The translations under genes were made by a program, and so were the position numbers. From sequence record MT833387.1: 39,390 nt of DNA; one strand, given 5' to 3'. Under the pieces are notes generated by a model, which saw only the letters and a list, made by a program, of their open reading frames with translations, searched no databases and was not told where the DNA came from. This stretch comes from Escherichia phage HF4s. Shown here piece after piece: positions 14 through 38,909 of the stretch (within the stretch, counting starts at the first letter, position 1; every line of letters starts with the position of its first letter).

Positions 14-436
14 ATGGCGACTGAACCAAAAGCTGGTCGCCCCTCTGATTATATGCCGGAGGTGGCTGACGATATCTGCTCGTTGCTTTCTTCTGGCGAA
101 AGTTTGCTGAAAGTATGTAAGCGTCCTGGTATGCCGGATAAGTCCACTGTTTTCCGCTGGTTGGCAAAGCATGAGGATTTTCGCGACAAGTACGCGAAGG
201 CAACTGAGGCACGAGCTGATTCTATTTTCGAAGAGATATTCGAAATTGCTGACAATGCGATTCCAGATGCTGCTGAGGTGGCAAAGGCAAGACTTCGCGT
301 TGATACCCGCAAATGGGCGCTGGCCCGAATGAATCCCCGTAAGTATGGCGACAAGGTAACTAACGAGCTTGTCGGTAAGGACGGCGGCGCAATCCAGATT
401 GAAACATCACCGATGAGCACTCTATTCGGAAAATGA
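14..436 (+). CDS. terminase small subunit (Sf6 gp1 / P22 gp3 type)
   Basis: 140-aa ORF opening the morphogenesis block, 4-nt overlap with the large terminase; size and position match Sf6-type TerS. Confidence 0.85.
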   Translation: MATEPKAGRPSDYMPEVADDICSLLSSGESLLKVCKRPGMPDKSTVFRWLAKHEDFRDKYAKATEARADSIFEEIFEIADNAIPDAAEVAKARLRVDTRKWALARMNPRKYGDKVTNELVGKDGGAIQIETSPMSTLFGK

Positions 437-1845
437 CCTCGATTAATCCTATCTTTGAACCGTTCATTAAGGCGCATCGCTACAAAGTCGCCAAAGGCGG
501 TCGAGGTAGCGGTAAATCATGGGCAATTGCGAGGCTGCTTGTTGAAGCGGCGCGTCGGCAGCCGGTGCGTATTCTCTGCGCTCGTGAACTGCAAAACAGT
601 ATCAGCGATTCGGTAATCCGGTTGCTTGAAGACACCATAGAGCGGGAAGGGTATTCGGCCGAGTTTGAAATTCAGCGTTCCATGATTCGTCATCTCGGAA
701 CTAATGCTGAGTTCATGTTCTACGGCATCAAAAACAACCCGACAAAGATTAAATCGCTCGAAGGTATTGATATCTGCTGGGTGGAGGAAGCGGAAGCGGT
801 AACGAAGGAATCGTGGGATATTCTGATACCAACCATCCGTAAGCCGTTCTCTGAAATATGGGTAAGCTTCAACCCGAAAAACATCCTCGACGATACCTAT
901 CAGCGATTCGTCGTAAACCCTCCTGATGATATTTGTCTGCTGACGGTGAACTACACCGACAACCCGCACTTTCCTGAAGTTCTCCGTCTGGAGATGGAAG
1001 AGTGTAAACGCAGAAATCCGACACTGTATCGTCACATCTGGCTTGGTGAGCCAGTAAGCGCAAGTGATATGGCAATCATCAAACGTGAATGGCTTGAAGC
1101 CGCAACCGATGCGCACAAGAAACTCGGATGGAAAGCGAAAGGCGCTGTTGTCTCTGCGCATGACCCATCAGATACAGGGCCAGATGCTAAAGGTTATGCA
1201 TCGCGTCACGGTTCGGTAGTTAAGCGCATTGCCGAAGGTCTGCTGATGGACATCAATGAAGGTGCTGACTGGGCTACTTCGCTGGCAATTGAAGACGGCG
1301 CTGACCATTACCTGTGGGATGGTGATGGCGTCGGTGCGGGCCTACGCCGACAGACAACGGAAGCGTTCTCCGGCAAGAAAATCACCGCCACGATGTTCAA
1401 GGGTAGCGAATCGCCATTCGATGAAGATGCATCGTACCAGGCCGGAGCATGGGCTGATGAAGTCGTACAGGGTGACAACGTTCGCACTATTGGCGATGTG
1501 TTCCGCAATAAGCGAGCGCAATTCTATTACGCGCTGGCTGACAGGCTGTATCTGACATATCGGTCGGTTGTCCACGGTGAGTATGCAGACCCCGACGACA
1601 TGCTGAGTTTCGACAAAGAAGCGATAGGCGAGAAGATGCTGGAGAAGCTGTTTGCAGAACTGACGCAGATTCAGCGCAAATTCAATAACAACGGGAAGCT
1701 GGAGCTAATGACTAAGGTCGAAATGAAGCAGAAGCTCGGTATTCCATCTCCTAACCTGGCTGATGCGCTGATGATGTGTATGCATTGCCCGGCATTGGTC
1801 CGCGAAGAAACAGAAATATACGTTCCCTCATCCTCCGGTTGGTAA
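433..1845 (+). CDS. terminase large subunit
   Basis: 470 aa; N-terminal Walker A (GGRGSGKS) ATPase followed by nuclease-like C-terminal half; position after TerS. Confidence 0.93.
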   Translation: MTSINPIFEPFIKAHRYKVAKGGRGSGKSWAIARLLVEAARRQPVRILCARELQNSISDSVIRLLEDTIEREGYSAEFEIQRSMIRHLGTNAEFMFYGIKNNPTKIKSLEGIDICWVEEAEAVTKESWDILIPTIRKPFSEIWVSFNPKNILDDTYQRFVVNPPDDICLLTVNYTDNPHFPEVLRLEMEECKRRNPTLYRHIWLGEPVSASDMAIIKREWLEAATDAHKKLGWKAKGAVVSAHDPSDTGPDAKGYASRHGSVVKRIAEGLLMDINEGADWATSLAIEDGADHYLWDGDGVGAGLRRQTTEAFSGKKITATMFKGSESPFDEDASYQAGAWADEVVQGDNVRTIGDVFRNKRAQFYYALADRLYLTYRSVVHGEYADPDDMLSFDKEAIGEKMLEKLFAELTQIQRKFNNNGKLELMTKVEMKQKLGIPSPNLADALMMCMHCPALVREETEIYVPSSSGW

Positions 1846-1847
1846 AC

Positions 1848-3973
1848 ATGGCAGAGACATTAGAGAAAAACATGAGCGGATCATGCTCAGGTTTGACCGC
1901 GCCTATTCTCCACAGAAGGAAGTGCGCGAAAAGTGCATTGAAGCTACGAGGTTTGCTCGTGTCCCCGGAGGTCAATGGGAAGGAGCAACGGCGGCTGGAA
2001 CTAAGCTTGATGAGCAGTTAGAGAAGTATCCTAAGTTTGAAATCAATAAGGTAGCAACTGAACTTAACCGCATCATTGCAGAATACCGCAATAACAGAAT
2101 CACTGTTAAGTTTCGTCCTGGTGACAGAGAGGCAAGCGAAGAGTTAGCCAATAAATTAAATGGTCTGTTCCGTGCTGACTACGAAGAAACTGATGGCGGT
2201 GAGGCTTGTGATAATGCATTTGACGACGCTGCTACTGGTGGTTTCGGTTGCTTCCGTTTGACGTCGATGCTGGTCAATGAATACGACCCCATGGACGATC
2301 GTCAGCGTATTGCTATTGAACCAATATACGACCCGTCGCGCTCTGTGTGGTTTGACCCTGACGCTAAGAAGTACGACAAATCTGACGCGTTGTGGGCGTT
2401 CTGCATGTATTCGTTGTCACCTGAAAAATATGAGGCTGAATACGGAAAGAAACCTCCTGCTTCTCTGGATGTAACGTCTATGACCAGTTGGGAATATGAC
2501 TGGTTTGATGAAGATGTTATTTACATAGCGAAGTATTACGAAGTTCGTAAAGAGTCTGTTGACGTCATCAGTTATCGACATCCAATCACTGGAGAGATTG
2601 CAACATACGACAGTGATCAGGTTGAAGATATTGAAGATGAACTGGCAATAGCTGGATTTCATGAAGTGGCAAGGCGCTCAGTGAAGCGCCGTCGTGTGTA
2701 TGTATCCGTAGTGGATGGTGATGGTTTCCTTGAGAAACCTCGACGTATTCCTGGTGAACATATCCCCCTCATCCCGGTTTATGGAAAACGCTGGTTCATT
2801 GATGACATTGAGCGTGTCGAAGGGCACATTGCAAAAGCAATGGATCCACAACGTTTGTACAACCTTCAGGTTTCAATGCTGGCTGATACTGCAGCGCAAG
2901 ACCCCGGTCAGATCCCTATAGTTGGCATGGAGCAAATTCGTGGACTTGAGAAGCACTGGGAGGCTCGCAACAAGAAACGCCCAGCGTTCTTGCCGTTGCG
3001 CGAAGTGAGAGATAAATCTGGCAACATTATCGCTGGAGCTACCCCTGCAGGATATACACAGCCTGCGGTTATGAATCAGGCATTGGCTGCATTACTACAG
3101 CAAACCAGTGCAGATATTCAGGAGGTTACAGGCGGCAGTCAGGCCATGCAGCAGATGCCAAGTAATATTGCTCAGGAAACGGTTAACAACTTGATGAACA
3201 GAGCAGATATGGCTTCGTTTATCTATCTGGACAATATGGCGAAAAGTCTTAAACGCGCTGGTGAAGTATGGCTGTCAATGGCGCGTGAAGTGTACGGTTC
3301 AGAACGTGAAGTGCGCATCGTTAACGAAGATGGAAGTGATGATATCGCTGTCCTGAGCGCACAGGTTGTTGACAGGCAAACAGGGGCTGTTGTTGCGTTA
3401 AATGACCTTTCTGTCGGTCGATACGATGTGACGGTTGATGTTGGACCAAGCTACACAGCACGACGTGATGCAACGGTTTCTGTACTGACAAATGTCCTTA
3501 GCTCTATGCTTCCAACAGACCCAATGCGCCCGGCAATTCAGGGTATTATTCTGGACAATATCGATGGCGAAGGCCTTGATGACTTCAAAGAGTACAACCG
3601 AAACCAACTGCTGATATCTGGTATTGCAAAACCACGCAATGAGAAAGAGAAGCAGATTGTTCAACAGGCGCAAATGGCAGCACAAAGCCAGCCAAATCCT
3701 GAAATGGTTCTCGCTCAGGCGCAAATGGTAGCAGCGCAGGCAGAAGCGCAAAAAGCAACTAACGAAACTGCTCAAACTCAAATCAAAGCATTTACTGCCC
3801 AGCAGGATGCGATGGAGAGTCAGGCAAACACTGTCTATAAACTGGCTCAAGCCAGAAACATCGATGACAAAGCAGTGATGGAGGCAATACGCCTTCTGAA
3901 AGATGTCGCCGAGTCACAACAACAGCAATTCCAGTCACCACCACAGTCACCGGCAGACTTAATGCCGAGTTAA
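1848..3973 (+). CDS. portal protein (P22 gp1 / Sf6 gp3 type), N-terminus disrupted by apparent frameshift
   Basis: Longest intact ORF is 1883..3973 (696 aa), with an N-terminal region aligning to P22 portal. An ATG at 1848 with MAETLEKN lies 3 nt after the terL stop in another frame; restoring one A in the A5 run 1866-1870 gives MAETLEKKHERIMLRFD, co-linear with the P22 portal N-terminus. Confidence 0.85.
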
Positions 3974-3986
3974 CCAGGAGTAATCA

Positions 3987-4870
3987 ATGGAAAACGAACT
4001 GATCATCGACGGTCAGGTTATTGACCTGTCTGAAACACAGGAAAATGCAGAAGAAACCATCATCCAAACAGAGTCACAGCCTGAGAATGAAAGCCAGGAT
4101 GACAACGGAAAAGAGATGGCAACTGATCCTGAAAAACCGAAGAGACACCAGAAGATTACGCCTTGCGTATTGGTGATGAAGAAATTCAGCTTAACGCTGA
4201 CGATGATGATCACATTGACGGGCAACCTGCACCGCAATGGGTGAAAGATCTTCGCAAAGGCTTCAAAGAAACACAGAAAGAAAACCGTGAGTTGCGCCGC
4301 CAGCTTGAGGAAGCATTAGCCAAGCCTGCGGAACATCAGCAACCACAACCAGACGCTATTCCACCAAAACCGACTCTTGAGTCGTGTGATTATGACGAAC
4401 AGGCGTTTGAACAGGCATTGACTGATTGGCATGAGAAAAAAGGCCGTGTCGAACAGCAGCAGCAACAAAAACTACGTCAGCAACAGGAATACCAACAGCG
4501 TTTCCAGCAAAGGGTAGAAGCGCATAAACAACGGGCAGCCAAACTTCCTGTGAAAGATTATCAGGAAATGGAGGCCATTGTTCTTAGTGAGCTACCACCA
4601 ATTCAGCAGGAAATCATCATTCACTGTGCAGACGAAGGCTCTGAACTACTCGCCTATGGCTTAGGTAAGAGCCAGCAATTACGCCAGCGTGTAGCCGCTG
4701 AGACAGATCCAATTCGCGCAGCATTCCTCTTGGGGCAGATTAGCAAACAGGTAAGCCTTGCTCCAAAACCAAAGAAAGCCATCAAGCCAGAGCCGGAAGT
4801 ACGTGGTGGCGGTGCTGATGCGAAACAAGACGAATTCAACAAATTATGCCCCGGCGCAAAAATCGAATAA
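3987..4870 (+). CDS. scaffolding protein (P22 gp8-like), split by apparent frameshift
   Basis: Two overlapping ORFs (3987..4244 and 4163..4870 with a TTG start) between portal and coat; acidic N-terminus and charged helical C-terminus typical of scaffold; frame change at the A5 run 4132-4136. Confidence 0.7.
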
Positions 4871-4881
4871 GGAAAAGATAA

Positions 4882-6153
4882 ATGCCTAACAATCTCGACA
4901 GTAACGTCAGTCAAATCGTTCTGAAAAAATTCCTTCCGGGTTTTATGTCAGATTTAGTTCTGGCGAAAACCGTAGACCGTCAGTTGCTGGCAGGTGAAAT
5001 CAACTCCAGCACTGGCGATAGCGTTAGCTTTAAACGTCCGCATCAATTCTCATCCCTCCGTACTCCCACTGGTGATATTTCAGGGCAAAATAAAAACAAC
5101 CTGATCTCAGGTAAAGCTACGGGGCGTGTAGGTAACTACATCACTGTTGCTGTTGAATATCAGCAACTGGAGGAAGCGATCAAGCTTAACCAACTGGAAG
5201 AAATTCTCGCGCCGGTTCGCCAGCGAATCGTTACCGACCTTGAAACAGAGCTTGCTCACTTCATGATGAATAACGGTGCGTTGTCACTTGGTAGCCCCAA
5301 TACTCCAATCACCAAATGGTCTGATGTTGCGCAGACGGCATCTTTCCTGAAAGACCTCGGCGTTAATGAAGGTGAAAACTATGCTGTAATGGATCCATGG
5401 TCTGCACAGCGACTTGCTGATGCGCAGACTGGTTTGCACGCTTCAGATCAATTGGTTCGTACTGCATGGGAGAATGCGCAGATTCCAACCAATTTTGGCG
5501 GCATTCGCGCACTGATGTCTAATGGGCTTGCCTCTCGTACGCAGGGGGCATTTGGCGGAACACTGACAGTCAAAACACAGCCAACTGTTACCTATAACGC
5601 AGTTAAAGACTCATACCAGTTCACTGTAACATTGACCGGAGCGACAGCCAGCATTACAGGTTTTCTGAGAGCTGGTGATCAGGTTAAATTCACCAATACC
5701 TACTGGCTGCAACAGCAGACCAAACAGGCGTTGTATAACGGAGCCACACCAATTAGCTTCACTGCAACGGTTACTGCTGATGCTAATTCAGACAGCAGTG
5801 GCGATGTGACGGTTACGCTTTCTGGTGTTCCGATTTATGACACGACAAACCCGCAGTACAACTCTGTAAGTCGTCAGGTAGCGGCAGGCGATGCCGTATC
5901 TGTAGTAGGCACTGCTAGCCAGACAATGAAGCCAAACCTGTTCTATAACAAGTTCTTCTGTGGACTTGGCTCTATCCCACTGCCGAAACTGCACAGTATT
6001 GATTCTGCTGTTGCAACATATGAAGGTTTCTCCATCCGCGTACATAAATACGCAGATGGCGATGCCAACGTGCAAAAAATGCGCTTTGACTTACTGCCTG
6101 CATATGTGTGCTTTAACCCTCACATGGGCGGTCAGTTCTTCGGTAATCCGTAA
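4882..6153 (+). CDS. major capsid (coat) protein, P22 gp5 / Sf6 gp5 type
   Basis: 423 aa, directly after scaffold with a strong RBS; length and position match the P22-like coat. Confidence 0.9.
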   Translation: MPNNLDSNVSQIVLKKFLPGFMSDLVLAKTVDRQLLAGEINSSTGDSVSFKRPHQFSSLRTPTGDISGQNKNNLISGKATGRVGNYITVAVEYQQLEEAIKLNQLEEILAPVRQRIVTDLETELAHFMMNNGALSLGSPNTPITKWSDVAQTASFLKDLGVNEGENYAVMDPWSAQRLADAQTGLHASDQLVRTAWENAQIPTNFGGIRALMSNGLASRTQGAFGGTLTVKTQPTVTYNAVKDSYQFTVTLTGATASITGFLRAGDQVKFTNTYWLQQQTKQALYNGATPISFTATVTADANSDSSGDVTVTLSGVPIYDTTNPQYNSVSRQVAAGDAVSVVGTASQTMKPNLFYNKFFCGLGSIPLPKLHSIDSAVATYEGFSIRVHKYADGDANVQKMRFDLLPAYVCFNPHMGGQFFGNP

Positions 6154-13666: not shown

Positions 13667-16042
13667 ATGTCAGATATCACAACAAATGCTGTTGTCGTAA
13701 ACCCACGCCCTATTTTCACCGACTCAAGAACGTTCCGAGCAGTTGCTAATGGTAAAATCTACGTAGGGAAAATAGACACCGACCCAACCATTCCATCAAA
13801 CCAGATCCCGGTCTACCTTGAAAATGAGAATGGTGACAAGGTTCAAATCCCTCAACCACTCATCGTAAATAACGCTGGCAAGATTGTTTACAACGGACAG
13901 TTAGCAAAGGTCGTAACGGTAAACGGTTATAGCATTGCCGTATATGACGCCTACGGTTCTCAAGTTGACTATATCCCAAACGTCCTTGGGTACGATCCAG
14001 ATAGCTTCAAAGACCAATTAGCTGGCCCAGACGGAGCATCGTTAATTGGTTATGGCAATGGAACGGTTGCAGATAAGCTTGATGAGCTTAAGACGCCATT
14101 TGACTTCGGCGCTAAAGGGGATGGAGTAACTGACGACACGCTGGCATTACAAGCATACATTGATGGTGTAGATGGCGACATTGACTTATACGGAAAAACT
14201 TATCTAGTTAGCAAAAACCCAGCACTTGCAACTACCTATCCAACGGAACCTGATTTAGCCAACAATGGATACAACTTCTGCCCGTGTCTCGCTATAGTTA
14301 ATAAAACCAATAAGAGAATCTTTAACGGCACACTCGTCAGCAAGGTATTTGGTCAGTCTGTTCTGTCTATCATCAACAGCACAGGAATAGAAGTTAACCT
14401 TAAAATTGTTGGGTTTGGTAAGTTTCCTGCCATTGACCACCCTAGTGGATATGCGGAAAAAGGATATTCAACTGGGGGCTACAATACGATTGATGGAGGC
14501 CTTCTTCTTGGCCCAAACAATTCAATCCCCACCTCCAGCTATACGCTAGGAAAGTACAATGGGGTATCAGGTCAGTTCCCAATATACGATGCCTCATGTA
14601 ACCCTACAGGTGGATATCAGTCTACTTGGGGTGCATTTGGAGGGGGTTACATTGGTAGCTATGCATGTGCTGTAACTATTCAGCGGGCATGCAAAAATAT
14701 AACACTACGCGGCTGTGAGATATACGGATTCAATGAAGCTGCTGTCGGCATTGGCATAAGATTTATTGTCAGCTCCACTGGATACACCGACTATACAACC
14801 GATGCTGATGTTCCTCGTGGGGTTAACGTCCTGGATTGCTATCTGCATGACTGCTACACAGCAGGAGTGCACGTATGCTCAGGGTACAATATTGTTTATG
14901 ACTCGTTAAGAGTGGAGAACATTGGTCATCCCAATGCAGATGACGCAACAGACACAGACATTAACCCAGGATACGGAGTAACAACATCAAGATTTAGAAA
15001 CATCCGAAACATAACTTGCGTGAATAGTTTCTTCCTAAATTGCAAACGCAAATCTATCGATTTCCATGCAGGCGGGCAATTGATAGTTGATGGAAACTAT
15101 TGCATGAGAACAGGTGTCAATGGCATATATTTTGAGGCGGGATTTGGTTGGGATAATGGATACGAGCCATATAACGTCATTGTTACTAACAATTACATTG
15201 TTACAAGAGCACTAGGCGTGGTTGGCACTGGTGGGATTTCCATGGTAGGAAATGGCTCCGCCCTAGCAGAGTCATACCCGTATCCTTTTTTGAAGTGTAA
15301 CAACAACTATATTGAGGTAAGGGCTGCCAACGGGGTGGGTATTAATAATGGTTACAACAATAACGATTACCACTATGAGGACATAAACATATGTGATAAT
15401 ACGGTTGTATACAAATCTGACACCTACACCCCGGGTCAGTTTGTTGCTATTCGTTGCAACCTAAATACTCCTTCATCTACTACTCTTCCGAAGCAAAACA
15501 TCAAGCTCTGTCGTAACAGCATAAAAATCCTGACAACGCTTGGTAATTACGCATTCGGAACTCCAATAACCATCGGTGGAACTCCTGCTGTTCTTATTGC
15601 AACCGATAATACAGTGGATATGGGGAACGTAGCTAATGGATCAAGTGCATGGTATGCGACAATTACCCCCAACCCAATAACTGACTATTACTTCTCAGGT
15701 AATAAAATACTTAACTACATTAAACCAGCCACTTTAAGACAAGCGGAAGTTATGTTCTATGACAACATAGGATTTACTGCCACAGGAACTTATGTTTCGA
15801 TAGCTATGCAGTGGTTTAGAGGGATATGGACGGTTGATGCAGCTGGTCTCGATTCACTTGCTGGCGCTAAGTCAGTTACCCTTGCATCTGACGGGGTCGG
15901 GATCACTCAGGGAACCCCGATACAACATGGGTCAATATCAGCTGCAATGACAATAAGTTCATCTAATATTGGGTTTACTACCACCGCCGGAACGACATGC
16001 TACGTTGGCGTAAAAATGAAACCTGTTGGTATTAAAGCATAA
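13667..16042 (+). CDS. tailspike protein: P22-type head-binding domain fused to a pectate-lyase-like beta-helix depolymerase domain
   Basis: 791 aa; first ~115 aa closely match the P22 gp9 head-binding domain (NPRPIFT...[16 protein letters not shown]...YDPD); remainder is unrelated to the P22 endorhamnosidase and carries the [13 protein letters not shown] motif of pectate-lyase-fold depolymerases. Confidence 0.9.
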
Positions 16043-16046
16043 ATAT

Positions 16047-16070
16047 GGCGGGGATACCCCCGCCTATTTT
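16047..16070. terminator. bidirectional intrinsic terminator between convergent tailspike and gtrC
   Basis: GGCGGGG-ata-CCCCGCC hairpin flanked by A/T runs on both sides. Confidence 0.6.
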
Positions 16071-17301
16071 ATTTCTGGTATATGTAATCGATACCGTAAT
16101 ATTCTCCAGCAGCTTTAGGGTTATGGAACTTATCAAGGCGATCCCCTAACCTGAAAGTGTTCTTCTCATTATATTTTGGCACTGTAATCACCTTTTCTCC
16201 AGAATGAATGCCTTTCTCTATCATTGCCACTCTGTCCAAGTATTGATTGTTTATATCTATGTAATATGATGACAACATGAAATAATCAACAAGAAATACA
16301 GGCAATAAAGTTAAAAGTAATACTGGCGTATAAAATTTTGAGATTTTCCCCTCAAATGAAGAAATTATCAGCGACAGACTTGCGAGAAGCAAAATAAAAC
16401 CAGTGGTCATAGCCCTTTGCGGATAGTAAGGTGCTGCAAACATAATTACATTCGAGCCGATTGCAAGGGCAAAGAATATAAAGGAGTATTGCATTTTTGT
16501 TTTATCATGCAGCATTGACAATGACGACAAAATAAACATTGATGTCATGATTACGATTATTAGTGCCCCATACTGCACAAGCATTTCAGGCATCCGGTCA
16601 AGCATGTGAAAGTAGATTCTTTCAGTTAAATCTTTTGAATACCATGAACTGAATGAAGGGCCGGAAGCCCTTGCTGCATTCCCAGGTGCCAAAAGCATGG
16701 AGGCAGAACCAACAAGTACAAATGGCAATAGAGCCAAATCTTTTACAGCGAAACGCTTGTTTATGAATGCCAATATACTATGACAAACGATAAATCCCAC
16801 AGAAAGCACCGCCACTGACTCATTCGATGCGCCAGCTAAAAATCCTAACGCAGCTTGTGGTATGGTAAATTTTACACCTTTCATTAAATTATTGCACAAG
16901 AGCATTAGAAGTAATGAAGGTATTAGATAATTAACAAACCCTACAACCCAAAAGGTATTTTGGCCTATGGAAGGGTTAAAAATAAAGAATGAAACCGCTA
17001 TTAAGCAGAATATAGCAGCCCCACCCTGAGCCATTCTCCTAATAACATGCATCAGAAGTATGCTAACTGTCGCGGTAACAGTTGCACTCATCGCATTAGA
17101 TTTAGCAAAAAGGATCATCGGACTAATAAAGTCTACTATGTATCTGCCGCTCCACCCCATATACATTGCAATATGCTTGTCAATGCTAAATCCAAGATTG
17201 CAGAATGCATAATCATCAGATTGCATTGGTGAAAGATAGCTTATTGCCCAAACCATCCCAAAGAAGGCAATATATGCGATAGGGTCTAAATACTTTTTCA
17301 T
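16069..17301 (-). CDS. gtrC: serotype-specific O-antigen glucosyltransferase, GtrC-type polytopic membrane protein
   Basis: 410-aa multi-pass membrane protein immediately downstream of gtrA-gtrB in the same orientation; visibly AT-rich relative to neighbours. Confidence 0.7.
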
Positions 17302-18214
17302 TTTCTTCCCTTCAGCACGTAACGAGGCCTATTCTTAACTTCTACGTAAATCCTGCCAATGTACTCACCGAGCACACCAATTCCTATTAGCTGAATACCG
17401 CCAAGAAAAAGAATAGAAACAAGGAGGGATGGATACCCACGAACCGCATTACCAAAGGCCAGGGTGTCTATAATCATCCACGCGCCGTACATAAACGCAG
17501 CACCGGCAACGAACAGGCCAATATAAGTCCACATGCGCAGTGGGAATGTTGAGAAGCTTGTGATCCCCTCAAGCGCCAGGTTCCATAGCTTCCAGCCGTT
17601 GAATTTGGTGCTTCCAGCCACTCGTTCTGCTCTGGCATACTCCACAACATCGGTACGGCCGCCAACCCAACTCAATACGCCTTTCATGAACAGGTTGCGC
17701 TCAGGCATGAGCTTAATGTTTTCTACCACCTCGCGAGACATTAGCCTGAAATCTCCAACATTTTCCTCGATCTGCGGGTTGCTGATTTTGTTATGCAGCT
17801 TATAGAACCACTCGGCGGTTTTCCTCTTCAGTCTGCCATCAGTTGAGCGGTCAGATCGTTTAGCAAGCACCATGTCAGCACCTGCTAGCCACTTTTCAAT
17901 CAGATGAGGAATGACCTCAATCGGGTCTTGCAGGTCAACATCAATAGGAATAACGGCATCACCTGTTGCATGGTCTAACCCTGCAAACAATGCTGGTTCT
18001 TTACCAAAGTTTCGTGTAAATGACAGCGGAACAACTAGAGGATCTGAAACGGACAGAGCGTTAATGATTGACTCCGTAGCGTCTTTGCTACCATCATTTA
18101 TAAAAACAATTTCCACTTCATATGGCTTCAACTCTTCGAATTCACGTACCGTTTTATAAAAATAGGTATCGCTTCCTCTTCGTTGAAGACAGGAACGACC
18201 AGAGATATCTTCAT
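17298..18214 (-). pseudogene. gtrB: bactoprenol glucosyltransferase GtrB, frameshifted after codon ~19
   Basis: ATG overlapping the gtrA stop encodes the canonical [19 protein letters not shown] and then terminates; the rest of GtrB ([10 protein letters not shown]...) continues in another frame; break at the T5 run (plus-strand A5, 18158-18162). Confidence 0.85.
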
Positions 18215-18573
18215 TTCGCATCCCTAAAGACAATGAACTTTGAATAGACGAAACCGCACACTAGGCTGATGGCGGAGAAGGTGACAAGAGTGACAATTGG
18301 AGGAAGTGCACATTTATCGGCAGCCCATCCAACAGTAGCACTCAGTGTTCCCATGAATCCTACATATAACATGTAGCGCATCGTTGTAGTCGAAGCTTTG
18401 AATGTGAATTTTGCATTCGCGAAGAAGCTAAAGCTCACAGCCACAACGAAACCTGCGAAGTTTGCAAGAGCCTGATTGGTGTGCGCGGCATAGATACATA
18501 CACCAAAAACCACCCAATGTATAAGTGTGTTCAGCACACCAATCGAGGTGTACTTTGCAAATAGCTTTAACAT
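18211..18573 (-). CDS. gtrA: GtrA flippase-like small membrane protein
   Basis: 120-aa hydrophobic protein with stop overlapping the gtrB start (ATGA); typical gtrA size and arrangement. Confidence 0.85.
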
Positions 18574-24271: not shown

Positions 24272-24654
24272 TTAGAAGGGAATTGAATCGTCGTATTCAG
24301 GATGATTTTGATGATTGCTACTTTGTTGCTGTTGGCTGTTTCCTGAAGTTGCAAATCCAATCTTTGCATTCAGTAATTCAAGAGTGATTGATTGACCATT
24401 TTGCCCCTGATAAACATCAACCCTGATGTTTTCTCCGGTAATTTCCACAATGCCACCTTCAACAAGAACACTACGGTAGTAATCCGCTTGCGCTCCTGGC
24501 TTGGCAAATACAACGGCGCTGTAGTTTGTCCATTCTTTCTTTTTGTCTGGCGATCGTAATACTGAACGCCAGCACGGATGTTGAATCCGATATTTTCCCC
24601 GGCCTGAAACTCTCTTGCGGGCTTGTTTAGTCTTACAGTAATCGAATGTGCCAT
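24272..24654 (-). pseudogene. ssb: single-stranded DNA-binding protein, frameshifted
   Basis: N-terminal ~40 codons in one frame; the other frame continues as an OB-fold-like sequence ending in the SSB acidic tail (EYDDSIPF-stop); break at the A5 run (plus-strand T5, 24540-24544). Confidence 0.75.
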
Positions 24655-25808: not shown

Positions 25809-26777
25809 TTAGTAGGTTATTTTTGTTGCGAATACTTCGCCTTTTACGATGGCTGTTATGATATTTTTAGCAACATCTTCTGATGCGCCAACCTTGATAA
25901 GGTCAGCAAGTATTTTGTTATTTACTTCTTTCCGGTGAGCTTTATCCTTTGCTCTACGCTCTTCTTCGTCCTTGATTCTTTTTTCTTCTGCTATTCTGGC
26001 TTGCTCTTTTGCTTCAGCCTCGCGACGGATTCGTTCAGCCTCCTCCTGTGCTTTTCTGCGCTCTGCTTCAATTGCTGCCTGCTTTTCTCTTTCAGCTCGT
26101 TCTGCTGCCTCTTTTGCTTCGCGCTGTGCTCGTTGCTCGGCTTCAATGCGTTCACGCTCTGCACGTTCCGCTGCGGCCTTAGCTTCTGCTTCTCGCCTTG
26201 CTGCTGCTTCAATTTCGGCTTTTGCCTTTGCTTCGGCTTCTGCTCTGGCTTTCTCTTCAGCTTCTCTTTTTAATCGTTCTTCATGCTCTCGCTTTTCCTG
26301 CTCCGCTTTGAGTCTTGCCTCTTCTCTTTGGCGGTCAAATTCGCGATCCATCAAAATAGCTATTTCATGGTCAGACTCAATTTGCTTTGCGAGAGCTTCA
26401 GCTGCTGCCTTAGCTTCTTCTTCGGCTTTAATCCGCGCCTGTTCTTCCTCATAATCAGTAAGAGGCTGGCGCGCCTTGGCTTTCAGCTCATCAAGGCGAT
26501 CACGCACTGTCTTGCGGTTGGCATCAATTAGCTTTGGAATTTCCTTCAGTTCAGCAACAAGGTCTTTGCCAAGACCATCGAGATATGTTTTCGTCTGCGC
26601 AACTTTATACGCCAGAGAAGCGATCTCCTTTCTGCCCTTTGCCGTTGTGATATCAGGCACAAAGGACATAACTTCACGTTCAACCTTTTGAAGGATTTCT
26701 TCAATCTGGTCGGCAGACTGAAATACAGTCATTGCATTTGCTTTTTCAATAACAACTAAATCTGTTACTTCACTCAT
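25809..26777 (-). CDS. hypothetical protein with long charged coiled-coil (E/A/K/R repeat) region
   Basis: Start assigned to ATG 26777 (GGAGG RBS) downstream of the terminator; ~150 aa of EAKA/ERAER low-complexity repeats. Confidence 0.7.
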   Translation of the reverse strand: MSEVTDLVVIEKANAMTVFQSADQIEEILQKVEREVMSFVPDITTAKGRKEIASLAYKVAQTKTYLDGLGKDLVAELKEIPKLIDANRKTVRDRLDELKAKARQPLTDYEEEQARIKAEEEAKAAAEALAKQIESDHEIAILMDREFDRQREEARLKAEQEKREHEERLKREAEEKARAEAEAKAKAEIEAAARREAEAKAAAERAERERIEAEQRAQREAKEAAERAEREKQAAIEAERRKAQEEAERIRREAEAKEQARIAEEKRIKDEEERRAKDKAHRKEVNNKILADLIKVGASEDVAKNIITAIVKGEVFATKITY

Positions 26778-26789
26778 ATATCCTCCATC

Positions 26790-26818
26790 AAAAAAATTGC
26801 CCTCACATCGGAGGGCAA
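26790..26818 (-). terminator. intrinsic terminator (tL1-like)
   Basis: Minus-strand TTGCCCTC-cgatgt-GAGGGCAA hairpin followed by a T7 run. Confidence 0.7.
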
Positions 26819-30201: not shown

Positions 30202-31149
30202 ATGAGCAATACAGCAAAAATCTACGATTTCAGCGCCGCACACGAGCGCAGGAGCAACAGGATGGAGAACCAGAAAACTGGTTACATTCCGTTGTACCGG
30301 AGCATTCTGAAACAGTCATGGGCGAAAGATGTTTATCTTCGCACCCTGTGGGAAAACCTTCTCCTGAATGCCGCCAGAAAGCCATACAAAGCGAATTTCA
30401 AAGGTCATGAATGGCATCTGCAACCCGGTCAACTGGTTGTGACAGCAGCTGATTTAGGTCTTCAGTTATGCGACAGACATGGCAAGCCAGCAAGCCGTGA
30501 TCAGGTTGAGCGGATGCTTCAGGTTTTTGTGAAAGAGGGGATGATCTCCATTGATGGAGAGAAGCAAAAAGGTCGTGTGATCACCATCACAAATTACCAT
30601 GAATATGCTCAAAAAATGGACAATTTACCCGCACATGAAGCCGCACAAACAACCGCACATGATGCCGCACATGACGAAGCCAGTAATGGCGCGGATTTCA
30701 GCGCACATGCCGCACATGAAAGCGCACATGAAGCCGCACAAATAACCGCACATCATGAACAAGAAGGTATTAACAAGAATATAAATAATACCCCCCTACC
30801 CCCCAATGGGGGAGGCGATGGACAGGTTAAACCTGAACGTCGCAAGGCAGAACGAATCGACTACGAATCCTTCCTGAACGCCTACAACACCGAAGTCGGT
30901 GACAGACTGCCACACGCTGTTGCGGTCAACGAGAAACGCAAACGCCGCCTGAAGAAAATCATCCCGCAACTGAAAACGCCAAACGTGGACGGTTTCAGAG
31001 CGTATGTCAGGGCGTTTGTGCATCAAGCCAAGCCGTTTTACTTCGGAGACAACGACACGGGCTGGACGGCTGATTTTGATTACCTGCTGAGAGAAGACTC
31101 GTTAACGGGAGTTCGGGAAGGGAAGTTTGCAGACAGGGGGATTGCATGA
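30202..31149 (+). CDS. replication initiator (O-like) with internal origin iterons
   Basis: 315 aa; HTH-like N-terminal domain, central His/Ala-rich repeat encoded by DNA iterons, conserved C-terminal domain; coupled to the helicase gene. Confidence 0.8.
30627..30810 (+). repeat. origin of replication: ~7 iterons (GCACATGA core) plus A/T-rich segment
   Basis: Direct repeats CCGCACATGA(A/C/T) at 10-25 bp spacing inside the initiator gene, followed by an A/T-rich stretch and C6-tacc-C6-aat-G5. Confidence 0.7.
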
Positions 31150-32564
31150 GACAGGATATCGAAGCGAGCGTTATCGGTGGCCTGCTGATTGGTGGATTAA
31201 CTCCAACCGCCAGCGACGTTCTGGCAACGCTGGAGCCGGAAGCGTTTTCAATTCCGCTCTACCGGAAAGCCTTCGAGGTTATCCGCAAGCAGGCGAGAAA
31301 CAGAAACCTAATCGACGCGCTGATGGTTGCCGAGGCGTGCGGAGAGGAGCATTTCACGTCAATCCTGATGACCAGTAAGAACTGCCCGAGTGCCGCAAAC
31401 CTGAAGGGATATGCCGGAATGGTCGCGGATAACTATCACCGCCGTCTGGTGCTGGAAATCATGGATGAAATGCGTGAACCAATTCAGAGCGGAACCATCG
31501 ACGCATCGAGTCAGGCGATGGACGAGCTCGTAAAGCGTCTTTCAGCCATCAGAAAGCCCCGTGACGAGGTTAAACCTGTACGGTTAGGGGAAATCATCAC
31601 TGACTACACTGACACGCTTGACAGGCGTCTGAGGAACGGAGAGGAATCAGATACCCTGAAGACCGGAATCGAAGAACTTGACGCTATCACCGGAGGGATG
31701 AACGCAGAAGACCTGGTGATTATCGCCGCTCGTCCTGGTATGGGGAAAACCGAACTGGCTCTGAAGGTTGCCGAAGGCGTGGCAAGCCGCGTTATTCCTG
31801 GTTCTGACGTCCGGCGCGGGGTATTGATTTTCTCAATGGAAATGAGCGCATTGCAGATTGCAGAGCGAAGCATTGCCAACGCCGGGAGGATGTCGGTTAG
31901 CGTACTGCGAAATCCTGCATCGATGGATGACGAAGGCTGGGCGCGTGTTGCTAACGGCATGAGTCAGCTTGCGGATTTGGATGTATGGGTAGTCGATGCA
32001 TCGCGGTTATCGGTCGAAGAAATACGCTCAATCGCAGAACGGCACAAACAGGAAAATCCAAACCTGTCACTCATCATGGCGGATTATCTTGGCCTGATTG
32101 AGAAGCCGAAAGCAGACCGCAACGACCTCGCAATTGCTCACATCTCCGGAAGCCTGAAGGCGATGGCGAAAGACCTGAAAACGCCTGTTATCTCCCTGAG
32201 TCAGCTTTCGCGCGATGTTGAGAAGCGACCAAACAAACGCCCGACAAACGCAGATTTGCGTGATTCAGGAAGCATTGAACAGGACGCAGACTCAATCATC
32301 ATGCTCTATCGGGAAGCGGTATATGACGAGAACAGTAGCGCCGCGCCATTTGCTGAAATCATCGTGACGAAAAACCGTTTTGGCTCACTTGGTACGGTTT
32401 ACCAGCGGTTCTGTAACGGACACTTTGTTGCATGTGACCAGGATGAAGCCAGACAGATTGCACAGCATCAAATGCGCCTGCTGCGCGTGGCAGACGATAT
32501 GCACAAGGGGCGGACGTATGACCATCATACATCAGACGGGACGTATGACCATCTACATCACTGA
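31146..32564 (+). CDS. replicative DNA helicase, DnaB family (P22 gp12-like)
   Basis: 472 aa; Walker [10 protein letters not shown] and DnaB C-terminal motifs. Confidence 0.9.
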
Positions 32565-32574
32565 GCTAATAACA

Positions 32575-32601
32575 GGGGCTATTTACACAGTAGCCCTTTT
32601 T
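32575..32601 (+). terminator. intrinsic terminator (tR2-like)
   Basis: GGGCTA-9 nt loop-TAGCCC followed by TTTTT, directly after the helicase stop. Confidence 0.65.
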
Positions 32602-32628
32602 ATTGGATTAAGAACGAGGGGGATCCTG

Positions 32629-32841
32629 ATGGACACCGTTAACGGAATGTGTTCAGACGCACCGCGTGCCAAAAAATGTAAGTGCGGAAAATCACCGACA
32701 ATATTCGACATGGAGAACGGGTGCCAAATCTACTGCGCTAACCACGCTGTTGTGGCGGCCGCGAATTATCGCAGTGCGGTAACGGAGTGGAATAACCTGA
32801 AATCTGTTAGAGAGGGAAGTCATGAAAAAACTAACCTTTGA
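32629..32841 (+). CDS. small Cys-rich protein (NinA position)
   Basis: 70-aa ORF with CKCG...C..YC motif; overlaps the ninB start. Confidence 0.45.
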   Translation: MDTVNGMCSDAPRAKKCKCGKSPTIFDMENGCQIYCANHAVVAAANYRSAVTEWNNLKSVREGSHEKTNL

Positions 32842-38663: not shown

Positions 38664-38909
38664 CCATTACAAAGCCTATCTACTGGTGGGCTTGATAATG
38701 AAACCAGAATTTATTCTTGGCAACCAGTTACGGCAGTACAGCGAAACAACCCAAGCCAGTAAGTGGGGAAATAACACTGGCAGCCACTGAAAGATGAACC
38801 TCCTGCCTTATGGCAAAAAGATTCTTTGTGGTGGCGGACTGATGGAAAGACATCTGTTATTGCAGAGACCATTCAATGAGTGGTCTCGACAATGGCTTAT
38901 ACCCTGCAC

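Follow-up and report, generated by a model that had tools for sequence, protein, structure and literature searches.

A Probable Homopolymer Miscount Interrupts the Portal Gene in the Genome Record of a P22-Like Phage

Results

Gene Order and the Portal Locus as Written

The window, by which we mean the whole 39,390-nucleotide stretch of DNA that was analysed, is a complete mosaic P22-like genome (Lederbergvirus, Sf6-type) laid out like that of Shigella phage Sf6. No phage record identical to it was found, the best overall matches being approximately 96–97% identical over parts. Looked up by exact protein sequence, its 696-aa portal product was matched only in other phages, and its tailspike had no match. 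The order terS-terL-portal-scaffold-coat is that of Sf6, and the portal gene sits where it does in Sf6, HK620, N7, and Gally, with terL ending just ahead of its ATG and with the scaffold and coat genes behind it (Table 1). Head-completion and ejection genes follow coat; farther along are the tailspike gene, a gtrA/gtrB/DUF6056 cassette and an integrase gene on the minus strand, and a lambdoid early region.

Table 1. Coordinates of the portal gene, its neighbours, and the other sites at which one base appears to have been lost
Feature	Coordinates	Strand	Basis or remark
terS	14..436
Large terminase gene terL, 470 aa	433..1845	+	ORF list; terminase large subunit annotated at the matching position in Sf6, HK620, N7, and Gally
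Portal start codon ATG	1848..1850	+	Corresponds to where Sf6 gp3 and HK620 gp1 are annotated to begin; same in all relatives
Reconstructed full portal gene	1848..3973	+	2126 nt in the window versus 2127 nt in relatives; 708 aa after one A is restored
Unrepaired frame from 1848 (MAETLEKN plus 49 out-of-frame residues, 57 aa)	1848..2021	+	Translation; ORF 1776..2021
A5 homopolymer (A6 in relatives), codons Lys7-Lys8	1866..1870	+	Alignment, indel listings, allele counts
Portal body ORF, 696 aa	1883..3973	+	Matches P22_portal PF16510; first codon is Met13 of the full-length protein
Scaffolding protein gene, split (85-aa ORF 3987..4244 and C-terminal ORF 4163..4870)	3987..4870	+	A6 to A5 at 4132–4136
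coat	4882..6153
tailspike	13667..16042
HK97 gp40-like / CUS-3 ECRS218_0055-like gene	24272..24654	-	T6 to T5 at 24540–24544 (coding strand A6 to A5, Lys-Lys-Lys stretch)
Replicative helicase P gene	31146..32521	+	TTT to TT at 32458–32459
ninA-like small gene	32545..32642	+	T6 to T5 at 32597–32601
Non-coding A5 run, no coding effect	38815..38819	+	Six relatives A6, one A7

Between the terL stop codon (TAA, 1843–1845) and the ATG of the portal gene lie two spacer bases (AC), so that the ATG begins 3 nt past the last base of the stop, as an earlier note on this DNA had it; the spacer is 2 nt long in Sf6 as well, and from this spacing we infer that the start at 1848 is probably coupled translationally to terL. 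That note had also described a frame that opens with MAETLEKN and then diverges, the body of the portal continuing in another frame from 1883, and the translations agree: the frame from 1848 runs to a stop at 2019–2021, and the long ORF is read in frame -1 (= +2) with respect to it. The break falls in the one-base contraction at 1866–1870, and a single inserted A yields MAETLEKKHERIMLRFD..., a 708-aa product. As written, then, the window holds no uninterrupted frame from the start codon of the family, an interruption most likely due to a base-calling error.

The suggestion that exactly one A is missing was confirmed by alignment of positions 1800–1960 with Sf6, N7, HK620, Gally, NM-3, and an E. 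coli prophage, all six of which carry A6. Over this interval the missing A is the sole difference between the window and Sf6, N7, or the E. coli prophage, too close a match to be coincidental, and HK620, Gally, and NM-3 show one or two further base differences; in all six, the portal gene is annotated from the equivalent ATG, with a length of 2127 nt (708 aa). Once repaired, the portal is identical to Sf6 gp3 (NP_958179.1; PDB 7SFS, 7SP4, 7SPU) at 702 of its 708 residues, aligning end to end (residues 1–708 of 7SFS chain M), with residues 1–57 all the same, so that the ORF from 1883 does, as proposed, fall 12 residues short at its N-terminus. The differences from Sf6 gp3 are thus the A5 in place of A6 at codons 7–8, which puts the N-terminal 12 residues out of frame, and six substitutions elsewhere.

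The Native Start of the Portal

These comparisons support the ATG at 1848 as the native start and the gene as the orthologue of the 708-aa Sf6 gp3. The portal of Salmonella phage P22 (gp1; PDB 3LJ5, 5JJ3) is far more distant (phmmer E = 9e-95; 725 aa), but it belongs to the same PF16510 fold family, aligns from residue 5/6 to approximately residue 682/697, and is co-linear with the repaired portal in the N-terminal segment that precedes the RFD motif. The co-linearity anticipated in the earlier note is therefore real, P22 residues 5–16 (ENRLESILSRFD) pairing with repaired residues 6–17; P22 lacks a Met where the repaired portal has Met13, and it implies no A6 run.

One could suppose instead that ATG 1883 is the native start, that the upstream ATG, with the seven matching codons, is a leftover that is not translated, and that the length of the A run is irrelevant. 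Gene callers do choose the internal ATG: the 696-aa product of the window is also called in three Logan assemblies whose DNA has A6 and in which the frame from the upstream ATG is open. The Pfam P22_portal model, for its part, begins at about residue 13–14 and is indifferent to the choice; the portal scores 595.5 bits, above the gathering cut-off of 26.1 (model positions 2–594 of 594), and the full-length and truncated versions score equally (595.5 versus 595.6 bits). Since the shorter product is called on an intact A6 run and the model starts only at about residue 13, gene calling and domain searches are blind to the missing N-terminus.

The proteins themselves tell otherwise. In the dodecameric portal of the Sf6 virion, residues 1–671 were built de novo into a 2.7 Å map, and the N-termini, located in the wing domain, touch the packaged DNA (PMC9728967); in P22, mass spectrometry of the protease-resistant portal core detected residues 2–624 (PMC13386823). 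Relatives whose portal begins at the equivalent of 1883, which would have spoken against the earlier note, are thus not what these data describe, the Sf6 map starting at residue 1 and the P22 peptides at residue 2. P22, despite its co-linear N-terminus, has Leu rather than Met at the position of Met13, and the upstream frame is open in 224 of 225 E. coli prophages; among the 110 IMG/VR contigs containing the site, it is open in 107. We rejected the start at 1883 on the Sf6 cryo-EM and P22 mass spectrometry evidence, despite the preference of gene callers, and give it next to no credence.

Recurrent One-Base Contractions

The portal is one of five genes in the window that a single added base brings back to a conserved product. 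These contractions emerged from comparison with Sf6, vB_EcoP-683R2, CUS-3, HK544, and the E. coli O104:H4 prophage, each being seen against at least two relatives. The repaired scaffold is a protein of 294 aa, 292 of them identical to Sf6 gp4; the gp40-like gene regains a 127-aa product and the ninA-like gene one of 32 aa. In helicase P as written, the last 21 residues are replaced and the ORF is extended to 32564 (472 aa); with one base restored it encodes 458 aa and ends as in CUS-3/HK544. Portal, scaffold, and replicative helicase are required for lytic growth in the biology of P22 and lambda. A 26–27 nt duplication at 32518–32544 is not a homopolymer event, so not every difference in the window is of that type.

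We then counted clean 1-nt indels, each flanked by eight identical bases on either side, between the window and 12 related sequences. They fall at 12 distinct sites; every one is a deletion in the window, and 11 of the 12 lie in homopolymers. The same audit applied to the finished O104:H4 prophage and to two Logan assemblies (L122 and L124) gave 0–2 events, in both directions. A global truncation of homopolymers was considered and rejected, for 28 six-base runs and one seven-base run survive in the window; with approximately 5 of 33 six-base runs contracted, any under-calling was sporadic rather than systematic. Three further sites were set aside because they do not distinguish the window: relatives vary among themselves both in the A8/A7 run (26790–26796) and at the TT/T site (38310), and the extra base at 26441 belongs to CUS-3.

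Frequency of the A5 Alleles

Among complete E. coli genomes, the portal A5 occurs in 1 of 225 and the scaffold A5 in 0 of 232. The IMG/VR contigs give a similar picture (3 A5 versus 107 A6 for the portal, 0 A5 versus 108 A6 for the scaffold), and all three of the portal-A5 contigs carry A6 in the scaffold. In the sole E. coli carrier, BA22372, the portal and several neighbouring genes are flagged as frameshifted by PGAP. The A5 pattern was not found in JGI metagenome contigs; species-representative genomes contain neither the A5 nor the A6 pattern and so are uninformative. The four portal-A5 sequences are only 95–98% identical to the window and, because of this, we regard them as independent events; in three of them the A5 is the only coding indel within the stretch compared. 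Outside the window, contraction of portal and scaffold together occurs only in error-rich assemblies.

The Same Lesions in Assemblies of an Intact Prophage

When the 85-aa scaffold fragment was looked up by exact sequence, it matched only error-rich or draft assemblies, and some of these can be set against a finished sequence of the same prophage. The finished O104:H4 prophage (FDAARGOS_349) has A6 at both portal and scaffold. An NCBI draft, AFST01000001.2, equals it at 5915 of 5916 positions, and the sole difference is the contraction of the scaffold run from A6 to A5. The read-set assemblies SRR254209 and SRR389194 differ from the finished prophage by no substitution and by six and four homopolymer deletions, respectively, and in each the deletions include A6 to A5 at both the portal and the scaffold. 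Since assemblies free of substitutions report A5/A5 for a prophage that is A6/A6, this exact pair of lesions is reproducibly made, as an error, by inaccurate sequencing. A different phage, that of SRR11867857, shares 99.3% identity with the window and likewise shows both contractions, with further ones of its own. The draft assemblies resemble the window in the two sites affected and in the change found there. They could be compared with the finished version of the same prophage, whereas the window could be compared only with relatives 98–99% identical to it, the nearest being 98.0% (E. coli) and 99.1% (Logan) identical.

Discussion

We believe, with a probability of roughly 0.87, that the frameshift in the portal gene is an artefact of homopolymer under-calling, a run of six A residues having been read as five at 1866–1870 in sequencing or assembly. 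A technical miscount, as opposed to a real mutation of the DNA, is the most likely origin to judge from the homopolymer context, the near-absence of the allele in relatives, the effect of the repair, the single direction of the indels, and the O104:H4 control. The portal miscount would then be one member of a genome-wide set of contractions that also breaks the scaffold, gp40-like, helicase P, and ninA genes. It is because one-base losses recur across the genome that we favour an artefact, and the presence of the same A6-to-A5 lesion in the scaffold gene, 2.3 kb downstream, together with lesions in three more genes, is what decides between artefact and biology. The indels of the window run in one direction and nearly all (11 of 12) are in homopolymers; several genes that are otherwise intact, essential ones included, are each mended by one base; and the same allele turns up in low-accuracy assemblies of DNA in which the finished run is longer. 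The record, moreover, is in Sf6 phage order and opens just upstream of terS, which suggests the record of a phage genome rather than of an excised and decayed prophage.

If so, this phage most probably has no frameshift in its portal gene, and that gene is an ordinary, well-characterised portal of the Sf6 type. The value of the observation is practical, not biological: for each of the five affected genes, annotation would best follow the conserved start and reading frame instead of presenting truncated or split ORFs. The segment lost from the portal, MAETLEKKHERI, is basic (K7, K8, H9, R11) and belongs to the portal N-termini, a region for which a part in headful sensing has been proposed (PMC9728967).

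The main rival to an artefact is that the A5 is a genuine -1 deletion and the genome that of a prophage in decay, rendered defective by homopolymer slippage that knocked out portal, scaffold, helicase P, and small genes and left at most a portal 12 residues shorter that starts at ATG 1883. Slippage mutations in real DNA are concentrated in homopolymers and biased to deletions, so that decay shares both biases with the pattern seen here. Nor is the portal A5 confined to the window: it occurs in four independent prophage sequences, including the complete E. coli genome that PGAP marks as frameshifted, and for three of the four it is the only coding indel within the stretch compared; the portal A6 run could be a true hot spot for mutation in resident prophages. 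Yet beside the five frameshifts we noticed neither premature stops nor IS insertions nor large deletions, judging by ORF lengths and alignments to relatives; each repaired product is essentially wild type, and the genome is in phage order and otherwise complete. None of 232 complete E. coli genomes and none of 108 IMG/VR contigs has the scaffold A5, yet it does appear in draft and read-level assemblies of an A6 prophage, where the same two-site pattern has demonstrably been made as an artefact. We therefore consider decay unlikely. Were the lesion real, ribosomes starting at 1848 would pass ATG 1883 and stop at 2021 after 57 residues, the scaffold would be out of frame past residue 50, and any portal made from 1883 would lack MAETLEKKHERI, part of the N-termini that touch DNA in Sf6 (PMC9728967); the phage would then offer a natural N-terminal truncation of a DNA-contacting portal region.

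Two further readings accept the A5 as real and give it a function. In one, the contraction is bypassed by recoding: tRNA-Lys slips by -1 (GAG AAA/AAC being read as GAG AAA AAA CAT), or RNA polymerase adds an A, and the low yield of wild-type portal, and likewise of scaffold at CCT GAA AAA CCG, would throttle or phase-switch virion production. A -1 slip at either A run would indeed regenerate the exact wild-type amino acid sequence, and tRNA-Lys on A runs is the classic slippery case of E. coli (dnaX); the run in the window is likewise decoded by tRNA-Lys, and a -1 slip there would restore the functional frame. Unlike the dnaX type of site, that of the window has no canonical heptamer (zero-frame G AAA AAC departs from X XXY YYZ, the first position being mismatched), no stimulatory structure 5–9 nt downstream, no conservation, and no second-product logic. 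The 80 nt that follow the run (1871–1950) fold no better than shuffled sequences (-21.5 kcal/mol, z = -0.85, 42 of 200 shuffles as good). The out-of-frame arrangement is not conserved, A6 being in frame in 224 of 225 E. coli prophages and 107 of 110 IMG/VR contigs. Appreciable transcriptional slippage needs a run of about 8–9 or more, and a run of five is far under that length. The TTT-to-TT change in P, the T6-to-T5 change in ninA, and the non-coding sites obey no such logic. Programmed frameshifting was rejected for want of a heptamer, a downstream structure, and conservation, and recoding in any form is very unlikely indeed. In the other reading, the A6 runs at portal codons 7–8 and scaffold codons 49–51 are reversible contingency switches, with slippage from A6 to A5 turning virion production off; we think this highly doubtful, and hold equally doubtful its companion proposal that production might be regained by reversion or by a leak of wild-type protein through -1 slippage of tRNA-Lys. 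The sole hint toward such switches is the recurrence of the portal A5 on four independent backgrounds.

Contracted Homopolymers beyond the Portal Gene

The scaffolding protein gene has undergone the same change as the portal gene, an A6-to-A5 contraction, which here divides it into an 85-amino-acid open reading frame and a C-terminal one; adding back one base yields a protein of 294 amino acids that is identical to the Sf6 scaffold, gp4, at 292 of 294 positions. The A5 allele of the scaffold gene was found in draft and read-level assemblies, and in none of 232 complete E. coli genomes and none of 108 IMG/VR contigs. Three further genes are affected in a similar manner. Contraction of TTT to TT in the gene for the replicative helicase P changes the last 21 residues and extends the reading frame to 472 amino acids, and the repaired protein, of 458 amino acids, has a C-terminal end that matches those of CUS-3 and HK544. 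The ninA-like gene is put out of frame by a T6-to-T5 contraction, and repair regains a conserved peptide. In the gp40-like gene the frameshift falls in a coding-strand A-run that encodes Lys-Lys-Lys, and a one-base repair is enough to regain a product of 127 amino acids. Two more contractions, both non-coding, lie within 38755-38830.

Coordinates of the features discussed (window positions unless another record is named)
Feature	Location	Strand	Remarks
Scaffolding protein gene	3987-4870		A5 at 4132-4136
Tailspike	13667-16042		791 aa
O-antigen glucosylation-type cassette, three genes	16069-18573	minus	between tailspike and integrase
GtrA	within 16069-18573	minus	PF04138, 120 aa
Family-2 glycosyltransferase, GtrB-like	within 16069-18573	minus	about 311 aa
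DUF6056 membrane protein	within 16069-18573	minus	410 aa
HK97 gp40-like / CUS-3 ECRS218_0055-like gene	24272-24654	minus	T5 at 24540-24544
Replicative helicase P gene	31146-32564		TT at 32458-32459
ninA-like gene	32545-32642		32 aa; T5 at 32597-32601
G5 to G4, non-coding	38765-38768		based on one relative
A6 to A5, non-coding	38815-38819		A6 in six relatives, A7 in one
Portal as called, Logan assembly L122	3001-5091
Portal as called, Logan assembly L123	1605-3695
Portal as called, Logan assembly L124	467-2557
E. coli BA22372 prophage	NZ_CP040397.1 3906696-3918764		portal A5

One difference does not involve a homopolymer: at 32518-32570 some 27 nt are imperfectly duplicated in tandem across the stop codon of P and the start of ninA, the copies reading ATGACCATCATACATCAGACGGGACGT and then ATGACCATCTACATCACTGAG. 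The duplication is absent from CUS-3 and HK544 and could be real or an artefact of assembly.

Portal Alleles and Start Calls

Among complete E. coli genomes, BA22372 is the only carrier of the portal A5. Its prophage, in which a deletion has fused the portal with the tail-needle region and several genes carry frameshift flags, is either truly decayed or the product of an error-prone assembly. In the three Logan assemblies the run is A6 and the portal frame is open from the upstream ATG, yet gene callers place the start at the internal Met13 codon. Because they do so, the 696-amino-acid portals of protein collections under-represent the true product of 708 amino acids.

Tailspike and Glucosylation Cassette

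Residues 1-112 of the tailspike form a P22-type head-binding domain. The Pfam matches of its receptor-binding body (endosialidase N-terminal extension, pectate-lyase-like) are all sub-threshold, and an exact-protein look-up in a large assembly collection identified no identical tailspike. Where the window carries the glucosylation-type cassette, Sf6 has an O-acetyltransferase; the DUF6056 membrane protein is likely to be a serotype-specific GtrC.
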